A stretch of DNA of 64,000 nt from Candidatus Gottesmanbacteria bacterium GW2011_GWA2_43_14 (GTDB lineage Bacteria > Patescibacteriota > Microgenomatia > 2-02-FULL-39-11), in assembly GCA_000999095.1 (NCBI GenBank), contig LCFP01000003.1, positions 93,437-157,436 of the forward strand, given 5' to 3'. The notes beneath the pieces were generated by a model. It saw nothing but the letters and a program-made list of their open reading frames with translations, was not told where the DNA came from and made no database searches. Positions 3,427 through 58,575 of this stretch are shown here, piece by piece; within the stretch, counting starts at the first letter, position 1; every line of letters starts with the position of its first letter. The translations under genes were made by a program, and so were the position numbers.

Positions 3427-4692
3427 TCAAGTAGTAATACTATTGGTATACAGATCTTCCAGTTCCTTGACGCCGCCGAAGGCAATGCGGTCGAGAACAA
3501 GCTTATCCATCCCCAGCATCAGAGCCGGTGTGATGACGAACTCGCCGAAGCGGTCGTTGATTTTGTCCGCAGCATCAGTTGCGTCCCGCTGCCTGGTTTT
3601 TTCCGTCCGGAAAAGCTCTTCCTGGACAAATTTTTTCTCCGCCAGGCCAAAACAACTGACAGCCAGCTTGGCCACTTTTTTTGCTTGATTGGGCCGGCGG
3701 TTAAAAACCAGCATGACTTTTTTGAACAGTTCTCCCGTGGTATACATTTCCGTTGAGAAAGTTGCCCCCTGGTGCCAGTGGGTATAGTCGGTGTAGATGA
3801 CGGAAACATGGATGCCCGAAGCGGTATAGCCGTGGCGGCGGAGGCGACGGCCCATCTTTTCCGTCAGCTTCATCAAAAGCCGGGCCAGCTCTTTTTTGTC
3901 CGAGGTGAATTGGCCCAAGGCATAAGACTGGCCGAAGCTTTTGCGGCCAAACTCGACGGCATCAATCTCCCAGCCCCGCAGTCTTAAGTACCAGTAATGG
4001 CCGACAATGCTGCGGAAAACCTGCTTGACCAGAAGGTCGCGCGGGCTTTTAAGAAAATCCAAAGGAGTGAAAATGCCGTGGGCGTTGAGCCTGGCCTGGT
4101 AGCGGGTATTGATGCCGCAAAGATCGACCAGAGTCACCTGCCGGTAAACATTTTCCAGATTTTGCCAGGTAACCGTTTCCAGACCGTCCGGCTTTTTCAA
4201 AGAAGCGGCCAGTTTGGAGAGGAAGCGGTTGGTCGAAATGCCGACCGAGACGGTAATCCAGTCGCCGATTTCCTTTTTAATGCGTTTTTTTATCTGACTG
4301 CCGACATCCTCCAGGGATTTGTTTTGAAGCGGCATGGAGGTAAAGTCGAGAACAGCCTCATCAATTGATTTGGGGAAGACGTCAGGTGAATATTCCCTGA
4401 AGAGCCGGCTGAACTTGAGGTGGATGTCCCGGTATTTGGGAGGATCGGGCGGCAGGACGATAATATCCCGGCAGAGAAATCTGGCTTCCCGCACGTTCAT
4501 GCCCACTCTGATGCCGTATCTTTTGGCTTCGACAGAAGGAGCGACCACACAGCCGTTGCCCGTAGTGTAGGCGGCCACCGCCACCGGTTTGCCGCGCAAA
4601 AGGGGATTGGCCTGCTGTTCGGCTGTCGCGAAACAGGAATTCATGTCGATGTGCATGACCCGCGGCTCGTTGCGGTTAAGAGGCAAGTCCAT
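3427..4692 (-). CDS. umuC: Y-family translesion DNA polymerase, UmuC-like
   Basis: HIDMNSCFATAE (UmuC-type D-x-N variant of the DMDCFFA motif), SIDEAVLDFT (catalytic D/E) and LCGINTRYQARLNAHGI little-finger region. A likely true start is MHIDMN near 4656. Confidence 0.8.
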   Translation of the reverse strand: MDLPLNRNEPRVMHIDMNSCFATAEQQANPLLRGKPVAVAAYTTGNGCVVAPSVEAKRYGIRVGMNVREARFLCRDIIVLPPDPPKYRDIHLKFSRLFREYSPDVFPKSIDEAVLDFTSMPLQNKSLEDVGSQIKKRIKKEIGDWITVSVGISTNRFLSKLAASLKKPDGLETVTWQNLENVYRQVTLVDLCGINTRYQARLNAHGIFTPLDFLKSPRDLLVKQVFRSIVGHYWYLRLRGWEIDAVEFGRKSFGQSYALGQFTSDKKELARLLMKLTEKMGRRLRRHGYTASGIHVSVIYTDYTHWHQGATFSTEMYTTGELFKKVMLVFNRRPNQAKKVAKLAVSCFGLAEKKFVQEELFRTEKTRQRDATDAADKINDRFGEFVITPALMLGMDKLVLDRIAFGGVKELEDLYTNSITT

Positions 4693-5780: not shown

Positions 5781-6251
5781 ATGGATGATATGAAAATTGC
5801 CATTGTTTACGCCACCAATTCCGGCGGGACGCAGCTGGCGGCGCAGATAGTTGCGGAAACTTTCGCCAAACACAACCTGACGGCGGAAATAAAAGAAGTT
5901 CAGGGCAGTATGCCTGCCGATTTAAAAAATTATGACCTGGTCATCCTGGCCTCACCCAGCTGGGATTATGAAGGCCTGGAAGGCGAGCCCCATCCGGATT
6001 ACCGCCCGTTTATGGAAAAATTCAAGGGAGAGGATTTCAGCGGACGGAAATTTGCCGTTTTCGGGCTGGGGGATTCATCCTATACTTATTTTTGCGGAGC
6101 GGTCCAGCATCTGGAAGACTTTGTCAAATCGCTAAAAGGTGAACTGGTGACTCAATCACTGCGCATTGACGGTTTTTATCTGGACCAACAGAAAAGTTCT
6201 CAGCAGTTGACTGATTGGACTGAAAGCCTTGTCACTCATCTCAATGGATAA
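5781..6251 (+). CDS. flavodoxin
   Basis: KIAIVYATNSGGTQ (FMN phosphate-binding loop), ILASPSWDYEG and FAVFGLGDSSY. The ORF-track start at 5718 would read through the palindrome; the start at MDDMKIAIVY is more plausible. Confidence 0.75.
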   Translation: MDDMKIAIVYATNSGGTQLAAQIVAETFAKHNLTAEIKEVQGSMPADLKNYDLVILASPSWDYEGLEGEPHPDYRPFMEKFKGEDFSGRKFAVFGLGDSSYTYFCGAVQHLEDFVKSLKGELVTQSLRIDGFYLDQQKSSQQLTDWTESLVTHLNG

Positions 6252-6804
6252 ATCACCTGTCCATCTTCCCCACAGAGTAATAACAGTTTCAGGCCGTGTT
6301 GCCAGTGGTGCCACGACTCTCTCCAGGGAACTGGCTAAAAAACTTCATTGGATCCTCTGGAACGGCGGGGAAATCTACCGGCAGTATGCCAGAGAGAAAA
6401 AAATTCCCCTGGAAAGGACGGATCTGTCTCCCGATGGTTACCACCTGAAACTGGACGAATACATCAAAGAAAAACTTGCGACAGAAAAAAATCTGATCAT
6501 GGAATCATGGCTGTCGGGATTTAATGCCCAGGGAATTGACGGTGTTTTTAAAATATTTATAGTTTGTTCTGTCGATTCCGTGCGGGTGGACAGACTGGTC
6601 AACCGGGAAAAAATCACCATTGATGAGGCAAAGTTGCATTTAAAGAGGCGGGAGGAGGAAAATATCAAGAAGTGGAAAAAATTGTACAAAACGGCTGATT
6701 TCTGGAATCCCGACCATTACGATCTGATAATTGATACTTACCAGAACGGTCCAACCGAAACCCTGGAGATAGCCCTGAAGGCTGCGGGTTACTACACCCT
6801 CTGA
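6229..6804 (+). CDS. cytidylate-kinase-like P-loop NTPase (archaeal-type CMP kinase family)
   Basis: ITVSGRVASGATTLSRELAKKL is a P-loop variant, and the architecture resembles short (d)CMP kinases. 191 aa. Confidence 0.5.
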   Translation: MSLISMDKSPVHLPHRVITVSGRVASGATTLSRELAKKLHWILWNGGEIYRQYAREKKIPLERTDLSPDGYHLKLDEYIKEKLATEKNLIMESWLSGFNAQGIDGVFKIFIVCSVDSVRVDRLVNREKITIDEAKLHLKRREEENIKKWKKLYKTADFWNPDHYDLIIDTYQNGPTETLEIALKAAGYYTL

Positions 6805-21008: not shown

Positions 21009-22037
21009 CTAATTATACTCCACTTCCATGCCAGGCTGTGCCTCAACCTGACGCCAGGGGGCGGCCTTGCCCCGGAAAAAAGCATAAGCGGCAATATAAG
21101 ACGCGTTGTCAGTACAGAGGTTTGGGGGAGGAATATGGAGAGAAATTTCGGATTTTGACCTTTTGATTTCCGATTTCATTTTTTCAGTCAGCCGGCTGTT
21201 GGCGGCAACTCCGCCTCCGACCAGCAGGCTTTTCACCTGATGGATTTGGGAAGCCCTGAGCGTTTTTTTTACCAGGACATCTGTGATGGCCTCTTCTATT
21301 TCCAAAGCCAGTTCCGCTTTTTGCCCGGAGGTAATACCCGCTTTTCCCATTTTTTGGACTTCCCTTAAAACAGCTGTTTTAAGCCCTGAAAATGAAAAAT
21401 TCAAATTGTCAGTTCCTGTCATCGGACGGGGCAGGCGGATGCCTGAAAGTGATTTTTTTAGGCGGATTCCGGCTGCTGCTTTTGCTATGGCCGGTCCTCC
21501 CGGGTAACCCAAGCCTAAAAGCCGGGCAGTCTTGTCAAAAGCTTCTCCGGCTGCATCATCCAGGGTCCCTCCCAACCAGATAATTTCCCGGTGGCTTTTA
21601 AGAAGGTAAAGTTCAGTGTGGCCTCCGGAGACTACCAGGCCAAGAGAGGGAAATACAGGAGGATTTTCAGGTTTTAGAAAATTTGCATAAAGATGGGCTA
21701 AAACATGGTTGACGGGAATAAGGGGTTTTCCACAGGCTAAGCTGAGCGTTTTGGCCGCTTCGACACCGACTAGTAGCGAGCCGATAAGTCCGGGACCGAC
21801 GGTTACGGCTATGGCATCAATGTTCTGCAGAGCAGTTCCGGAGATTTCCAACGCTTCATTAATGGTCGGGATAATGCACCTGACCTGCTCGCGGGCAGCT
21901 TTTTCAGGTATGATGCCTCCGTATTTTTCATGCATCCACATTGATGAGGAAACAATGTTTGAGAGGATGGTTGTGCCGTCTCGAACTACCGCTGCGGCGG
22001 TCTCATCGCAGGAAGATTCTATACCCAGGATGATCAT
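21009..22037 (-). CDS. tsaD: tRNA N6-adenosine threonylcarbamoyltransferase TsaD
   Basis: MIILGIESSCDETAAAVV start and Kae1/TsaD His-motif (VNHVLAHL), VSGGVAANSRL. Confidence 0.9.
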   Translation of the reverse strand: MIILGIESSCDETAAAVVRDGTTILSNIVSSSMWMHEKYGGIIPEKAAREQVRCIIPTINEALEISGTALQNIDAIAVTVGPGLIGSLLVGVEAAKTLSLACGKPLIPVNHVLAHLYANFLKPENPPVFPSLGLVVSGGHTELYLLKSHREIIWLGGTLDDAAGEAFDKTARLLGLGYPGGPAIAKAAAGIRLKKSLSGIRLPRPMTGTDNLNFSFSGLKTAVLREVQKMGKAGITSGQKAELALEIEEAITDVLVKKTLRASQIHQVKSLLVGGGVAANSRLTEKMKSEIKRSKSEISLHIPPPNLCTDNASYIAAYAFFRGKAAPWRQVEAQPGMEVEYN

Positions 22038-22525
22038 AAATGCTCTTTCTTCAGAAGATCCGCAATCCGTGATGATGACAGGGATTTATTGAAGGGCAAG
22101 ACTTTCAATTGGCCACCGCTTTTTTCCGCCTGGCTTTTTTTGAGATCAAGCAAAGGATCATTGTCGGTTGCGGCGATCACATCAGGCTCCAGCCTTCTGA
22201 TTAACTCATCGTAACCGGCATCCGATTCAATAAGAGGCAACATGACAATAAAAGCTACCGAAGTCAGTGAGGCTAGCATTTCCGCCCGCTCTTTTTGGGA
22301 AAAGACAGGCCTGAGCTCGCCTTTCAGAAGTCTCACTTTTTCATCCGGTTCCAGTAAAATGAACACTCTGCCTCCCAATTTTTCCGCTGAACGGATGAAT
22401 TTGATATGTCCCGGGTGGAGAATGTCAAAACAGCCGCCGACGACAGTAACTACAGTCCGACTTTTCTTATAGGATTTAATTATCGCTTCTGCTTTTTTAA
22501 CTGAAATTATTTTGTTAACCGGCAT
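22034..22525 (-). CDS. cytidylyltransferase-family nucleotidyltransferase (HldE domain-II-like, ADP-heptose-synthase-like)
   Basis: VVGGCFDILHPGHIKFI (HxGH), LEPDEKVRLLKG and RPVFSQKERAEMLASL parallel the RfaE/HldE adenylyltransferase domain. Confidence 0.55.
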   Translation of the reverse strand: MPVNKIISVKKAEAIIKSYKKSRTVVTVVGGCFDILHPGHIKFIRSAEKLGGRVFILLEPDEKVRLLKGELRPVFSQKERAEMLASLTSVAFIVMLPLIESDAGYDELIRRLEPDVIAATDNDPLLDLKKSQAEKSGGQLKVLPFNKSLSSSRIADLLKKEHL

Positions 22526-22554
22526 GTGTCTAGCTATATCACACCTGGTGTGTG
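22524..22554. repeat. REP-like palindromic element copy 1 (ATGTGTCTAGCTATATCACACCTGGTGTGtgc)
   Basis: Read directly. Its 3' arm is degenerate. It sits in the 35-bp gap between two minus-strand genes. Confidence 0.6.
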
Positions 22555-29420: not shown

Positions 29421-29440
29421 GTTAAACTTAAAATTAGAAA

Positions 29441-29473
29441 CAAAAAAAACCCTCCCAAGCAGAGGGTTTTTTT
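29441..29473 (+). terminator. rho-independent terminator after groEL
   Basis: A-tract, CCCTC stem, CCAAGCA loop, GAGGG stem, then TTTTTTT. Read directly. Confidence 0.7.
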
Positions 29474-29531
29474 ATGGAAAGAATAACTAATTTAGATTGA
29501 ATATGCCTTTCCTACGTGATATATTTAGCAC

Positions 29532-30392: not shown

Positions 30393-30408
30393 GCAATGGT
30401 TTCCCCGA

Positions 30409-30441
30409 ATGTGTCTAGCTATATCACCCCCGGGGTGATAC
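30409..30441. repeat. REP-like palindromic element copy 2 with compensatory stem changes (…TATCACCCC-C-GGGGTGATAC)
   Basis: Read directly. It overlaps the last 6 codons and the stop of the minus-strand MraY-like gene. Confidence 0.6.
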
Positions 30442-31503
30442 GGTTTTTTGGGGGAGTTTTTTGAAGAAGTTCAGCCAGACAATCAGCATGGCCACCAAAA
30501 TGACAATCAGGAGAAAGGCAAAGACTTTTTGCTTTGGGTTCAGAGATAAGGCGGCAGTACCGGCGATAAAGGAAATAGCCCAATAAAAAAGCGCAATCCT
30601 TCTTTTCCCCCAGCCCAATTTTAACAGGTGATGATGCAGATGTTCCGATGAGGCTTTGACCGGAGAAGCTCCGCTTAAAATCCTTTTGCCCAGGATAAAG
30701 ACGGCATCGGTCATAGGTACTGCTAGGACCAGAAGGGCTGTGCCGAATTTGGAAAAAGATAAAATTGACAAAACCCCCAGCATGAATCCGGCCAGGGTTT
30801 TCCCGCCATATCCGGGCATGATTTTTTGCGGATAATAATTCCAGGGAAGAAATCCCAGATATGAGCCGGCCGTTAAAAAAGCCAGGGCGGTCACATAATA
30901 TTGGTTGGGATCGGCTATATAGCGGATTGACAGCATGCCGATGACAACGGCTGAAATGGAGACAAAACCGGGCAGCTGGCCGTCGACCCCTCCTGACCAG
31001 CCGATGATGTTGGTAGTCCAGACTATCCAGATAAAAGCCAAAACCTGTGACAGGTACAAAGAGCCCAATCCCAAAAGATTTAAATCCACGGAAATATTAT
31101 CGAAGCGGATGATTCCTCCGAAGGGACTGGTGACATAGGGAATATTGATGCCGCCTAAGATGACAATTGCCGCCGCCAGGCAGTTGATGAAAAAGCGCAA
31201 GTAGGGAGAACGGTCTTTGCGGTCATCCCAAAGTCCGGAGAGTATAAGAATAAGGGCCCCTAAAAAGATACCGGTTGCCAGGGGTTGAATTTTCAGAAAT
31301 ATAAACAATGGCAGAAATATTCCCAAAAGTAGCGGGATGCCTCCTGCCCGGGGAATAATGCCGGTATGGGTATGCGCCGGGTGCGGCCGTTTTTTTGAAT
31401 CGTCGAGCAGTTTGTATTTTGAGGCCAGTTTAATGGTCGGCGGAACCAACAGAAAGGTGACCAGAAAAGACAGGCTGATCAAAAATGAAAAAGTTAAAAA
31501 CAT
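30424..31503 (-). CDS. MraY/WecA-family polyprenyl-phosphate sugar-1-phosphate transferase
   Basis: Multi-TM protein with NIIGWSGGVDGQLPG and MTDAVFILGKRI...SSEHLHHHLLKLG, matching MraY-family motifs. The C-terminal VSPRG* is encoded inside the REP copy. Confidence 0.65.
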   Translation of the reverse strand: MFLTFSFLISLSFLVTFLLVPPTIKLASKYKLLDDSKKRPHPAHTHTGIIPRAGGIPLLLGIFLPLFIFLKIQPLATGIFLGALILILSGLWDDRKDRSPYLRFFINCLAAAIVILGGINIPYVTSPFGGIIRFDNISVDLNLLGLGSLYLSQVLAFIWIVWTTNIIGWSGGVDGQLPGFVSISAVVIGMLSIRYIADPNQYYVTALAFLTAGSYLGFLPWNYYPQKIMPGYGGKTLAGFMLGVLSILSFSKFGTALLVLAVPMTDAVFILGKRILSGASPVKASSEHLHHHLLKLGWGKRRIALFYWAISFIAGTAALSLNPKQKVFAFLLIVILVAMLIVWLNFFKKLPQKTVSPRG

Positions 31504-52905: not shown

Positions 52906-52910
52906 CCGGG

Positions 52911-52942
52911 ATGTGTCTAGCTGTATCACACCTGGTGTGATA
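52911..52942. repeat. REP-like palindromic element copy 3 (ATGTGTCTAGCTGTATCACACCTGGTGTGATAT)
   Basis: Read directly. It lies 5 nt after the LCP stop and upstream of the RAYT-like gene. Confidence 0.65.
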
Positions 52943-52945
52943 TAG

Positions 52946-52975
52946 ATTGACACGTTCCGGAAATTATTTCATATT
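52946..52975 (+). promoter_or_regulatory. candidate promoter for the RAYT-like gene (TTGACA-17-CATATT)
   Basis: TTGACA at 52946-52951, a 17-nt spacer, then CATATT. A GTG start follows at 52982. Confidence 0.3.
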
Positions 52976-52981
52976 AAAAGT

Positions 52982-53656
52982 GTGACAACCAGAAAACTGC
53001 CAATAGTTACCAGCGAGATATACCACATATTTAACAGAAGTGTAGGGCAGCAACCGATATTCAGGAATATCTATGAAAATAAACTGTTTGTCGAACTAAT
53101 CGAATACTATCATTTTTTTCATACCAATCTCCGTTTTTCTTACTACAACCGTTTGCCGAAGGATCAAAGAGATAAGATTTTAAAAGACCTGTACATTAAG
53201 AAGTTATTCAATATTGAAATATATTCTTTTTCTCTTATGCCAAACCACTTTCATCTATTGGCAATGCAAAAATCTGAAAAAGGCATAAGTAACTTTGTCA
53301 GATGTCTTCAAGACAGTTATGCAAAATATTTCAATATGAAAAATAAAAGAGAAGGCGCTTTATTTCAGTCACCGTTTAAAAGTGTCAGAATGGAAACTGA
53401 AGAACAACTTTTACATGTTTCCAGATATATACATCTCAATCCTTTGACATCTTATGTTTTAAGAAATAAAGAAGATTTAATTAATTATCAATGGAATTCG
53501 TTCAGAGATTATGTCAGTGCTTCTCCAAGACGCTTTATAAAAACAAATCTGATTAGTTCATTTTTTAATAAGAACAATAGTTTTGAGGAATTTACTTTTA
53601 ACCAACTGGATTATCAGAGAAAATTAAAAATGGTGAAACACCTGATTTTGGAATGA
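52982..53656 (+). CDS. REP-associated tyrosine transposase (RAYT) / IS200-like HUH transposase
   Basis: HUH motif in SLMPNHFHLLAMQ, and a catalytic-Tyr block VSRYIHLNPLTSYV (YIHxNP). AT-rich versus flanks, and flanked on both sides by the palindromic element. Confidence 0.65.
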   Translation: MTTRKLPIVTSEIYHIFNRSVGQQPIFRNIYENKLFVELIEYYHFFHTNLRFSYYNRLPKDQRDKILKDLYIKKLFNIEIYSFSLMPNHFHLLAMQKSEKGISNFVRCLQDSYAKYFNMKNKREGALFQSPFKSVRMETEEQLLHVSRYIHLNPLTSYVLRNKEDLINYQWNSFRDYVSASPRRFIKTNLISSFFNKNNSFEEFTFNQLDYQRKLKMVKHLILE

Positions 53657-53662
53657 TCCCGG

Positions 53663-53695
53663 ATGTGTCTAGCTGTATCACACCTGGTGTGATAC
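53663..53695. repeat. REP-like palindromic element copy 4
   Basis: ATGTGTCTAGCTGTATCACACCTGGTGTGATAC. It shares the G variant with copy 3. Confidence 0.65.
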
Positions 53696-53701
53696 GGATG
53701 A

Positions 53702-55090
53702 TTAGAGTTTGAGGAGGAATTTGGAGCCGACTAATAGCAGGGTCAGCCCGCTGCCTAAAAGAAAACCCGTAAAGGTAGTGACTCCTGATCTTGGCGGCAG
53801 ATCGATCTGCCCTGCCCCGGTAGGAGTCGGGGGTTCCGGCGTCGGGGTTGGCGTTTCAGTCGGCGTCGGTGACGGTGTCGGCGTTTCAGTCGGCGTCGGG
53901 GTTTCAGTAACCTCAACCTCCTCCGCGGGGGTTGCGGATGGGGGAGTATCTGTGGGAGTTTCCGAAGCTGACGGTGTAGCGTCTCCAAGAACAGCTTCAC
54001 CGCTTTTTAATACAGCGAACTTCCGGCTCAATGTTGTCGGCCGTCCGTATTTGTCCGTGCTTTGGATGCGGATTTCGTGAATGCCCGGTTCCAGGGCTTT
54101 TTTCGGGCGGAAACTCCAGGTACCGTCAGCTCCGACAGTCAAAGAAACGGTCTGCGGAGTGGACATAACGGTAACCGTTATTTTCTCGCCGGGAATACCG
54201 ACCCCCCGCAAAACCGGTTGGCGGTCGGCTGTGGCATCCATTTCCGACCTGGGGAAATAAAAACCGACACCGTTTTCCGGAATTTGGGCTGGTTTGCGGG
54301 CTGTTTCCCGGCCTAAAATTACGGAAGATTTATTTTCAGGGCTGTTTGGTAAAAAATTATACCTCTTGCCGATCTGCATGTCCGGCAGCATTCCCTGTTT
54401 CACGGTCGCCAGATCAGTCACGGCTGATGAATAATCCCGGCTGTTTTCCTTTACGGTGATCTGGATCTGCGAGCTGTCGTCAAGATAAGGCCTGGAGAGA
54501 AAGTCCTGGGTCCTCAGATTGTTTAAGGGAATTACCCACATGCCCAGCCGGTCGCTCCAGGCGGATAACGGGCTGGCCTGTCCGACCAACAGATAAACAA
54601 GCAAATTTTCCGCCGGACTGCCATCTCTTGCGAGTATCCTGCCTTTGACAGGCGGCAGTTCCAAAGAAGCCGGTAAGGGCACGCCCGTTTTTTGCACAAA
54701 CTCGGGACATTTTTCCCTGAAAGGACAACCGCTTCCTCCGGAGAATATTTTCAATGTGTATTCCCGGTCGGCATGCAAATTTTTTACCGAAAAAACATGC
54801 TGCGTTCGCTCCCGGGGATTGCCGTCGCTGTCCCGTTCATCGAGAAGGGAAGTCCTGACGCCTTCTCCGCTGACGGACACTGAAGTAATAACCGCTTTTT
54901 CCGTCAGGAAGGAAAGAGAAAGCGAATTGTCCGTTATATTGGTAATGTGAACGTCAGCCGGCGAAGGCAGGTCTTCGGCATTGGTGGTGAGCTGTTTGAA
55001 TGTGCCGTCGAAATAGACGGTTAAGCCTATACCGGCGAACAAAATGAACAGGGCTAGAAGTGTGGGAATTTTTCTTTGTTTACGGTACAT
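53702..55090 (-). CDS. cell-surface protein with Ig/FN3-like domains, Thr/Pro-rich linker and C-terminal hydrophobic anchor
   Basis: N-terminal signal/anchor. TPTPTETPTPSPTPTETPTPTPEPPTPT linker, then DLPPRSG + hydrophobic segment + KFLLKL, which resembles a sorting-signal/anchor architecture. Confidence 0.45.
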   Translation of the reverse strand: MYRKQRKIPTLLALFILFAGIGLTVYFDGTFKQLTTNAEDLPSPADVHITNITDNSLSLSFLTEKAVITSVSVSGEGVRTSLLDERDSDGNPRERTQHVFSVKNLHADREYTLKIFSGGSGCPFREKCPEFVQKTGVPLPASLELPPVKGRILARDGSPAENLLVYLLVGQASPLSAWSDRLGMWVIPLNNLRTQDFLSRPYLDDSSQIQITVKENSRDYSSAVTDLATVKQGMLPDMQIGKRYNFLPNSPENKSSVILGRETARKPAQIPENGVGFYFPRSEMDATADRQPVLRGVGIPGEKITVTVMSTPQTVSLTVGADGTWSFRPKKALEPGIHEIRIQSTDKYGRPTTLSRKFAVLKSGEAVLGDATPSASETPTDTPPSATPAEEVEVTETPTPTETPTPSPTPTETPTPTPEPPTPTGAGQIDLPPRSGVTTFTGFLLGSGLTLLLVGSKFLLKL

Positions 55091-58517: not shown

Positions 58518-58530
58518 ATTGCCATCCCGA

Positions 58531-58563
58531 ATGTGTCTAGCTATATCACACCTGGTGTGATAC
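58531..58563. repeat. REP-like palindromic element copy 5
   Basis: ATGTGTCTAGCTATATCACACCTGGTGTGATAC, in the convergent gap between murJ and the glycosidase gene. Confidence 0.65.
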
Positions 58564-58575
58564 AAGATACAAGAG

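Follow-up and report, generated by a model that had tools for sequence, protein, structure and literature searches.

The DNA analysed here is a 64-kb stretch (the window) from Candidatus Gottesmanbacteria GW2011_GWA2, a member of the candidate phyla radiation (CPR), and the Patescibacteria-like lineage guessed in an initial annotation of the same letters was therefore right. The region is 97% coding, and between a LytR gene and a convergent gene it contains a 796-bp segment (52906-53701) with a single gene for a 224-residue protein of the Y1 HUH type, bracketed by a repeat composed of a conserved foot and a hairpin. Copies of the same repeat stand alone at the ends of other genes. In what follows, the gene with its two flanking repeats is called the cassette and the isolated repeats are called lone copies. 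As already remarked in the initial annotation, the gene is AT-rich, with a GC content of 0.307 against 0.459 for the window (15 points lower), and this tendency is shared by its relatives, collected from assemblies and 80 metagenome contigs, since in 38 of 39 loci the GC content of the gene is below that of the flanking DNA, with a median difference of 7 points.

The protein (open reading frame 52982-53656), in which an HUH motif and a YIHLNP block had been read between the copies at 52911 and 53663, matches PF01797 (Y1_Tnp) with 38 bits for a cutoff of 23, in an alignment that covers profile positions 10-119 of 121 and includes both motifs. The predicted HUH histidines are H89 and H91, within MPNHFHLL, and the putative catalytic tyrosine is Y149, within YIHLNP; these three residues, together with H151, N153, P154, W171 and S173, do not vary among 24 homologues, and in the HMMER alignment to the TnpA of ISDra2, PNHFH stands opposite PDHVH. 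An AlphaFold model built from the same 24 homologues (pLDDT 90.9) finds as its top Foldseek match in the PDB the structure 4er8, that is, E. coli TnpAREP on a hairpin of the repetitive extragenic palindrome (REP), with an E-value of 1.4e-6 and a TM-score of 0.71 normalised to target length, followed by 2a6m, 2xma and 2vjv, which are the TnpA proteins of IS608 and ISDra2. By sequence, the profile match to 4er8 is weak (E 0.06).

A number of reports have sorted proteins of this kind under different names: the TIRtron/TIRYT class (Di Nocera et al. 2013, PMC3733652) is mostly TnpAY1 subclass 2.1 (Quentin et al. 2018, PMC6006769), which equals group 1 of the REP-associated tyrosine transposases, or RAYTs (Bertels et al. 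2017, PMC5581495). Subclass 2.1 is characterised by the motifs NH[YF]H, FQ and Y[IV]HLNP, a median length of 238 aa, a proximal tail with a conserved Ser and a distal C-terminal domain resembling a helix-turn-helix (HTH; Bac_DnaA_C, HTH_23 or HTH_28), in which subgroup 2.1.2 is heterogeneous (PMC6006769). Compared with the motif strings in Table 1 of that paper, rather than with its hidden Markov models, the window protein agrees with the subclass 2.1 row in its NHFH, L-F-Q-S and YIHLNP motifs, its W171-x-S173 tail and its length, and on these features it would fit TnpAY1 subclass 2.1 / RAYT group 1 / TIRYT and not the classical REP-associated groups. A Pfam scan of its C-terminal 70 residues (155-224) at E<=10 returned no HTH domain, the only match being DUF956 (E 0.084).

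The search recovered 2,748 homologues, most of them about 224 aa long and the named ones mostly from Woese-, Davies-, Roizman- and Gottesmanbacteria; the database entry identical to the window protein is annotated as hypothetical and comes from Candidatus Gottesmanbacteria GW2011_GWA2, and homologues differ by 35-65% between genomes. Compared with the TIRYT-like protein of a related genome described below (L100), the clade carries an insertion of about 24 aa (residues 44-67; consensus LRFSHYNRLP), with invariant R51, S53, R57 and L58; recognition of the foot may reside in this segment.

The repeat itself is a 33-mer, ATGTGTCTAGCT(A/G)TATCACACC-T-GGTGTGATAC, present on the + strand at 30409, 52911, 53663 and 58531 when at most three mismatches over its full length are allowed, and absent from 100 shuffles. 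The copy at 22524, also on the + strand, was found with the first 19 nt, which are all that it retains; the distal right arm (GGTGTGtgcag) is missing, and the copy folds no better than shuffles (z 0.01). The five copies in the same orientation listed in the initial annotation are thus confirmed, as are their placement at gene 3' ends, each lying 0-17 nt from a stop codon, and an A-to-G variant private to the two copies that flank the gene; the CCGR said to precede every copy directly abuts three of them and stands one base off in the remaining two, and the wider 5' consensus ahead of the copies reads (A)TCCCGR. The variant, a G at position 13, lengthens the stem, so that in DNA folding the downstream copy forms 11 pairs, compared with 8 in the lone copies. 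The copy at 52911 ends in T instead of C, and that at 30409 has three differences, two of which form a compensatory stem pair (CACACC/GGTGTG to CACCCC/GGGGTG). The 5' flank CCCGR was considered as a possible IS608-type target site; in several relatives those bases belong to the inverted repeat, which argues that the bases before the foot would be part of the element.

Two elements had been overlooked. A sixth, inverted foot lies at 52943-52955, where the top strand is the reverse complement of the foot and the bottom strand reads ACGTGTCAATCTA, with a bottom-strand match to the repeat at 52934-52955; because of it, positions 52906-52960 form a 55-nt near-perfect palindrome, with a DNA folding energy of -17 kcal/mol (z -6.3). 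A fourth lone copy lies 3.6 kb past the right end of the window (L104:17099), in a census that covered about 71 kb of host DNA, namely the window and 7 kb beyond its right end. All six elements in these 71 kb (four lone copies and two cassette ends), which represent about five independent events, are placed on the G-rich strand. Such a placement could be explained if the protein acted on the lagging-strand template, with numbers too small for a test, and across 28 loci of the family the orientation of the gene relative to GC skew has no consistent sign. Two copies overlap coding sequence: a glycosyltransferase-4 gene (30424..31503, minus strand) has its final five codons and its TGA stop inside the hairpin of the copy at 30409 (30424-30441), and the ATG of the open reading frame 22034..22525 (22523-22525) consists of the first two bases of the copy at 22524 and the base before them.

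The association between gene and repeat extends to the whole family. Among 62 homologous loci with both flanks available, 51 have a matching repeat upstream and downstream that scores above the 95th percentile of the control, for which scores between loci were used (median flank-repeat score 20.5, as opposed to 7.5 in controls; Mann-Whitney p 6e-27). The layout conserved in the close subfamily is one of inverted, not direct, ends: the upstream end carries, on the bottom strand, GGTGTCAA-nn-TA and a hairpin, with GTGTCAA in the foot, and the downstream end carries, on the top strand, G(T/G)GT(C/G)(T/A)A... and the same hairpin as upstream. In a comparison of 28 elements of this subfamily, the stem was found to vary by lineage (for example CACACC, CACCCC, CCCACTCC, TTCCACCT or AACCTT), while the five inner stem pairs are perfectly Watson-Crick in all 28, over nine stem variants. 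The foot, GTGTC(T/A)A, starts about 8-10 nt ahead of the stem, and 12 nt of it are conserved 5' of the stem; the distance from its start to the loop is 19-22 nt in 26 of the 28 elements, which are those with a detectable foot pattern, and neither GTAG nor GTGG, the two forms of a GT[AG]G foot, occurs at the stem base. A fixed spacing combined with a free stem is what one protein recognising the folded hairpin and adjacent bases would predict. In distant relatives, other palindromes are found at both flanks, often nnAGGTC(C/G)GACCTnn.

Individual loci add detail to this picture. L037 and L094 each contain two Y1 genes of the family within 20 kb, each gene with its own flanking hairpin pair (in L037, for example, CACCTGGAAGGTG and CACCTTAAAGGTG). 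An element in Shapirobacteria, which belong to another CPR class (L004:5676-5730), shares the same 22-nt foot and left arm (ATGTGTCTAGCTATATCACACC) and has a duplicated right arm after the left arm (CCGGGGGTGTGC...CCGGGGGTGTGC). The identical 29-nt downstream end is also carried by the locus L010, where the Y1 protein has 59% identity.

The sites occupied in the window are empty in related genomes. Two sister Gottesmanbacteria, L098 and L099 (MurJ 69-70% identical to that of the window), have the same gene order as the window, UvrD-TIM-LytR, then a 465-aa gene-PilO-PilN-S20-MurJ, then GH39-HrcA-GrpE-DnaK, and neither contains the Y1 gene in this syntenic region. The distance from the LytR stop to the convergent stop, 796 nt in the window, is 8 nt in L098 and 1 nt in L099. 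In the same manner, the MurJ/GH39 junction measures 58 nt in the window (58518-58575) and 0-5 nt in L096 (MurJ 85% identical), L098 and L099, and altogether the spacers of relatives at repeat sites are 0-16 nt long. The copy at 30409 has an orthologue in L003 (neighbouring protein 84% identical), and no element occupies its site in L100 or L102 (69-72% identical); the junction orthologous to the copy at 22524 has no element in L100. By MurJ identity, L096 is as close to the window as L003, and if the two belong to the same lineage, the insertions at 30409 and 58531 happened at different times. As the cassette and the lone copies are absent from sister Gottesmanbacteria, insertions are the simplest account, and by this comparison of gene orders the cassette would most simply behave as an insertion rather than as a resident genome-structuring system. 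The gene contexts also differ between L010, L014 and the window.

Further differences between genomes were seen around these sites. In L003, the lone copy (3875-3960) follows the glycosyltransferase-4 gene and is followed by a 479-aa gene, instead of the PEGA/SH3 gene present in the window, L100 and L102, so that gene order breaks exactly at the repeat. In L100 (11930-12905; GCA_001779115.1, Gottesmanbacteria), and also in L101, a different Y1 gene, encoding 213 aa, lies between PEGA/SH3 and GroEL, with inverted repeats GGGGACGGGGGTAGA that resemble the published TIRYT motif GGGGWSAS; the corresponding GroEL-PEGA spacer of the window (29421-29531) has no Y1 gene. We rejected this gene as proof of movement of the cassette, as it belongs to a different subclade, is 35% identical and has different ends.

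The left end of the cassette doubles as a candidate promoter. The TTGACA-17-CATATT sequence proposed in the initial annotation was recovered by a promoter scan as sigma-70-like, with 10 of 12 consensus positions, and its -35 box is supplied by the foot GTGTCAA of the bottom strand, which on the top strand reads TTGACAC. In most close-subfamily loci, TTGACA begins 35-36 nt upstream of the start codon and a hexamer resembling TATAAT comes about 17 nt after it; no Shine-Dalgarno sequence precedes the gene in the window or in most of these loci. As 6 nt separate the end of the -10 box from the GTG, with no Shine-Dalgarno sequence, the mRNA, whose transcription we infer from these signals, is probably leaderless. 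The downstream and lone copies have GTGTCTA, which reversed gives TAGACA, a poorer -35 box. Binding of the left end by the cassette's own protein could repress its gene, a form of autoregulation.

Table 1. Positions of the cassette components and of the lone copies in the window
Feature	Positions	Strand	Details
Cassette left end	52906..52960		Top-strand foot + hairpin 52911-52943, bottom-strand foot 52943-52955; starts right after LytR stop (52905)
Promoter (predicted)	52947..52975	+	TTGACA-17-CATATT
Y1 HUH gene	52982..53656	+	224 aa, GTG start, GC 0.307
Cassette right end	53658..53701	+	CCCGG + foot ATGTGTCTAGCT + 11-bp hairpin (core 53663-53695); abuts stop codon of convergent gene at 53702
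Lone copy	58526..58563	+	Between convergent MurJ and GH39 genes; exact match
Lone copy	30404..30441	+	Between PEGA/SH3 gene and convergent glycosyltransferase-4 gene; compensatory stem change
Lone copy, right arm shortened	22519..22553	+	Between two tandem minus-strand genes

Some observations concern the surroundings of these features. The minus-strand gene beside the cassette (53702..55090) encodes 462 aa, with a Pro/Thr-rich repeat (TPTPTETPTPSPTPTETPTPTP) and then a C-terminal hydrophobic segment; short tandem repeats of DNA (GGCGTTTCAGTCGGCGTCGG) occur in the same gene at 53755-54000, and the homologues of its product in sister genomes match fn3 and Big_13. In L102, a PhdYeFM/ParE toxin-antitoxin pair (5892-6464) lies beside the PEGA/SH3 gene, and was not called there in L100. 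No known RNA families or tRNA genes were found in the window.

Lone copies are few, both in the host and elsewhere. The four found in the 71 kb are all at gene ends, and in some 380 kb of DNA around the gene, from 28 loci of other lineages, five extra copies were found, in three loci. Among species-representative genomes, a set to which the host does not belong, the exact 19-mer was found as single copies in L003 and L004, both CPR; three further matches, in unrelated organisms, have no hairpin and were taken as chance. The lone copies are clean units of 33-60 nt at stop codons, with no remnants of the gene, and no REPIN doublets were detected among those found. Such modest dispersal fits the moderately abundant families formed by some TIRYT terminal inverted repeats (PMC3733652), as well as the 16-mers flanking group 1 genes, which occur about 12 times per replicon on average (PMC5581495). 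It does not show a genome-structuring REP population.

Taken together, these results make it likely that positions 52906-53701 are a single-gene cassette of the REPtron/TIRtron type, in which a Y1 HUH endonuclease/ligase of RAYT group 1 / TIRYT / subclass 2.1 is enclosed by two inverted ends, each made of a foot and a hairpin. Such cassettes form an established class of elements that are, or once were, mobile, and the system is not of a new kind. By homology with TnpAREP and with the TnpA proteins of IS608 and ISDra2, the protein would bind the folded hairpin and the foot on transiently single-stranded DNA, and would cut nearby through Tyr149, with a metal held by His89 and His91, followed by rejoining of the strands; in this way, the cassette and lone ends would have been placed, over evolutionary time, into very short spacers at gene 3' ends. 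That the protein acts catalytically on the hairpins, and that it moved the lone copies, is thus suggested by analogy with those relatives.

Several points weigh against this interpretation. Its link between protein and hairpin is drawn by analogy. Subclass 2.1 has been reported with terminal inverted repeats and without REP-like hairpins (PMC6006769); the assignment to that subclass draws on published motif strings. The TIRYT repeats, many of which have the motif GGGGWSAS (PMC3733652), agree with the foot GGTGTCAA at 6 of 8 consensus positions. Even the nearest homologue shares only 63-64% identity with the protein, so that neither a donor nor a recent transfer can be identified, and a single gene copy, with no near-identical second cassette, does not amount to a demonstration of current mobility. 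Precise loss from the sister lineages is an alternative to insertion, albeit a less parsimonious one. Finally, the closest relative, L003, keeps a lone copy and its whole genome holds one exact 19-mer; evidently, copies can survive where the cassette is missing, or else they remain very few.

The initial annotation had described the locus as a REP-RAYT system, and the corresponding rival reading would be a canonical, domesticated one, in which a resident single-copy RAYT sustains a large genome-wide population of REPs or REPINs. A fold nearest to TnpAREP, the YxxxNP tyrosine motif, flanking hairpins that recur as lone copies at gene ends and one gene copy in 64 kb are all in favour of it, and in this respect the identification as a Y1 HUH enzyme and the description of a hairpin that flanks the gene and also occurs alone have stood. 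Nevertheless, we regard the canonical system as distinctly unlikely: the protein scores 47.4 bits with NCBIfam REP_Tyr_transpos (NF047646), below the cutoff of 80, its motifs are those of subclass 2.1, not of 2.2, 2.4 or 2.5, no GT[AG]G foot adjoins the stem, and the lone copies lack REPIN doublets. The family ends are inverted and the dispersal, at four lone copies in about 71 kb and five in about 380 kb elsewhere, is modest, while the existence of syntenic sisters without the cassette and the GC content of the gene, 15 points under that of the host, also speak against this reading. For the same reasons, namely the low count and the absence of the cassette from sister genomes, the notion of a genome-structuring element put forward in that annotation was not borne out.

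An ordinary insertion sequence of IS200 type (class 1.1), moving as a unit and leaving lone copies as decayed former insertions, would account for the size of about 0.8 kb, the single AT-rich gene, the hairpin ends and the absence from sisters, and the top strand of the window does have foot and hairpin in direct orientation at both ends, as in IS200/IS608. We consider this explanation very unlikely, given that the tyrosine motif is YIHLNP and not Y---Q, that NCBIfam transpos_IS200 gives 16.6 bits for a cutoff of 55, that tblastn detected no second copy of the gene in the window, that homologues are 35-65% divergent rather than near-identical, and that the lone copies are free of gene remnants. 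The hairpins might instead be host signals (terminators, hairpins stabilising mRNA 3' ends or an operator) that are mechanistically unconnected with the protein. In favour of this, every copy is found at the 3' end of a gene, in three cases between convergent genes, one (30409) is followed by a T run, and the upstream copy overlaps the promoter. Yet a terminator scan returned no terminator-like site around the gene, the T run is missing from most copies, 12 nt of foot are conserved 5' of the stem, the same spacers of 0-16 nt in relatives do without the repeat, and the repeat pair, though its sequence differs from lineage to lineage, accompanies the gene at 51 of 62 loci, which together make a purely host function of the hairpins extremely improbable.

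The single-gene cassette thus shares features with three known systems. In common with TIRtrons it has the protein motifs, a length in the range of about 220-240 aa, the Ser tail, inverted repeats flanking the gene, moderate repeat abundance and traits of an insertion sequence, and a classical member of that class, 35% identical and with GGGGACGGGGGTAGA inverted repeats, exists in a related Gottesmanbacteria genome. Unlike in TIRtrons, its repeat combines a foot with a covarying hairpin that follows at a fixed spacing, and its clade has the insertion of about 24 aa, no detectable Pfam HTH and a CPR host. The E. coli REPtron (TnpAREP, RayT/YafM, PDB 4ER8, with REP/BIME repeats; subclass 2.2) is the best structural match and shares the YxxxNP motif, inverted hairpin repeats with a 5' foot that bracket the gene, and lone copies downstream of genes, often convergent ones. 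It differs in the foot, since the GT[AG]G tetranucleotide of classical REPs is placed 0-2 nt 5' of the stem (PMC6006769), whereas the foot in the window differs from GTAG and begins some 8-10 nt ahead of the stem, as well as in the weak sequence match, the REPIN doublets missing here and the hundreds of REP copies of enterobacteria and pseudomonads, far more than those of the window element. With the TnpA of the IS200/IS605 group (IS608, ISDra2), the likeness lies in the HUH/Tyr fold, in subterminal hairpins with adjacent recognition bases and in the position of all six copies of the window region on the G-rich strand, which would fit lagging-strand targeting (too few to test); the window element departs from it in having Y---NP in place of Y---Q, a single copy, inverted instead of direct ends in its family, and no tnpB partner.

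A bolder proposal would make the cassette the type example of a large, undescribed Y1 clade, with more than 2,700 proteins sharing its architecture and possibly specific to Microgenomates, in which the foot serves as a -35 box and is joined to a covarying hairpin at 20-nt spacing; the elements would be active in tiny CPR genomes, and the host would have co-opted the lone ends as spacers, stop codons or start codons where neighbouring genes would otherwise touch or overlap. We think this rather unlikely, with a real chance of being right nonetheless.

In CPR genomes, which are small and in this region coding over about 97% of the length, any repeat family accompanied by an enzyme stands out, and a search of an available literature collection returned no relevant account of RAYT or REP in CPR bacteria. 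The locus provides a natural before/after comparison for an element of RAYT group 1 / TIRYT, a group whose DNA targets are poorly defined: the empty sister sites fix the boundaries of the cassette and of the lone copies within a few bases, and the covariation over dozens of lineages separates what is conserved (the foot, the spacing and the pairing of the stem) from what is free (the sequence of the stem), so that the rules of recognition are directly testable with oligonucleotides. The general picture of REPs and RAYTs is unchanged by these results; it is extended to a new phylum, and the hairpin-less TIRYT class is linked to the hairpin-bearing REPtrons.

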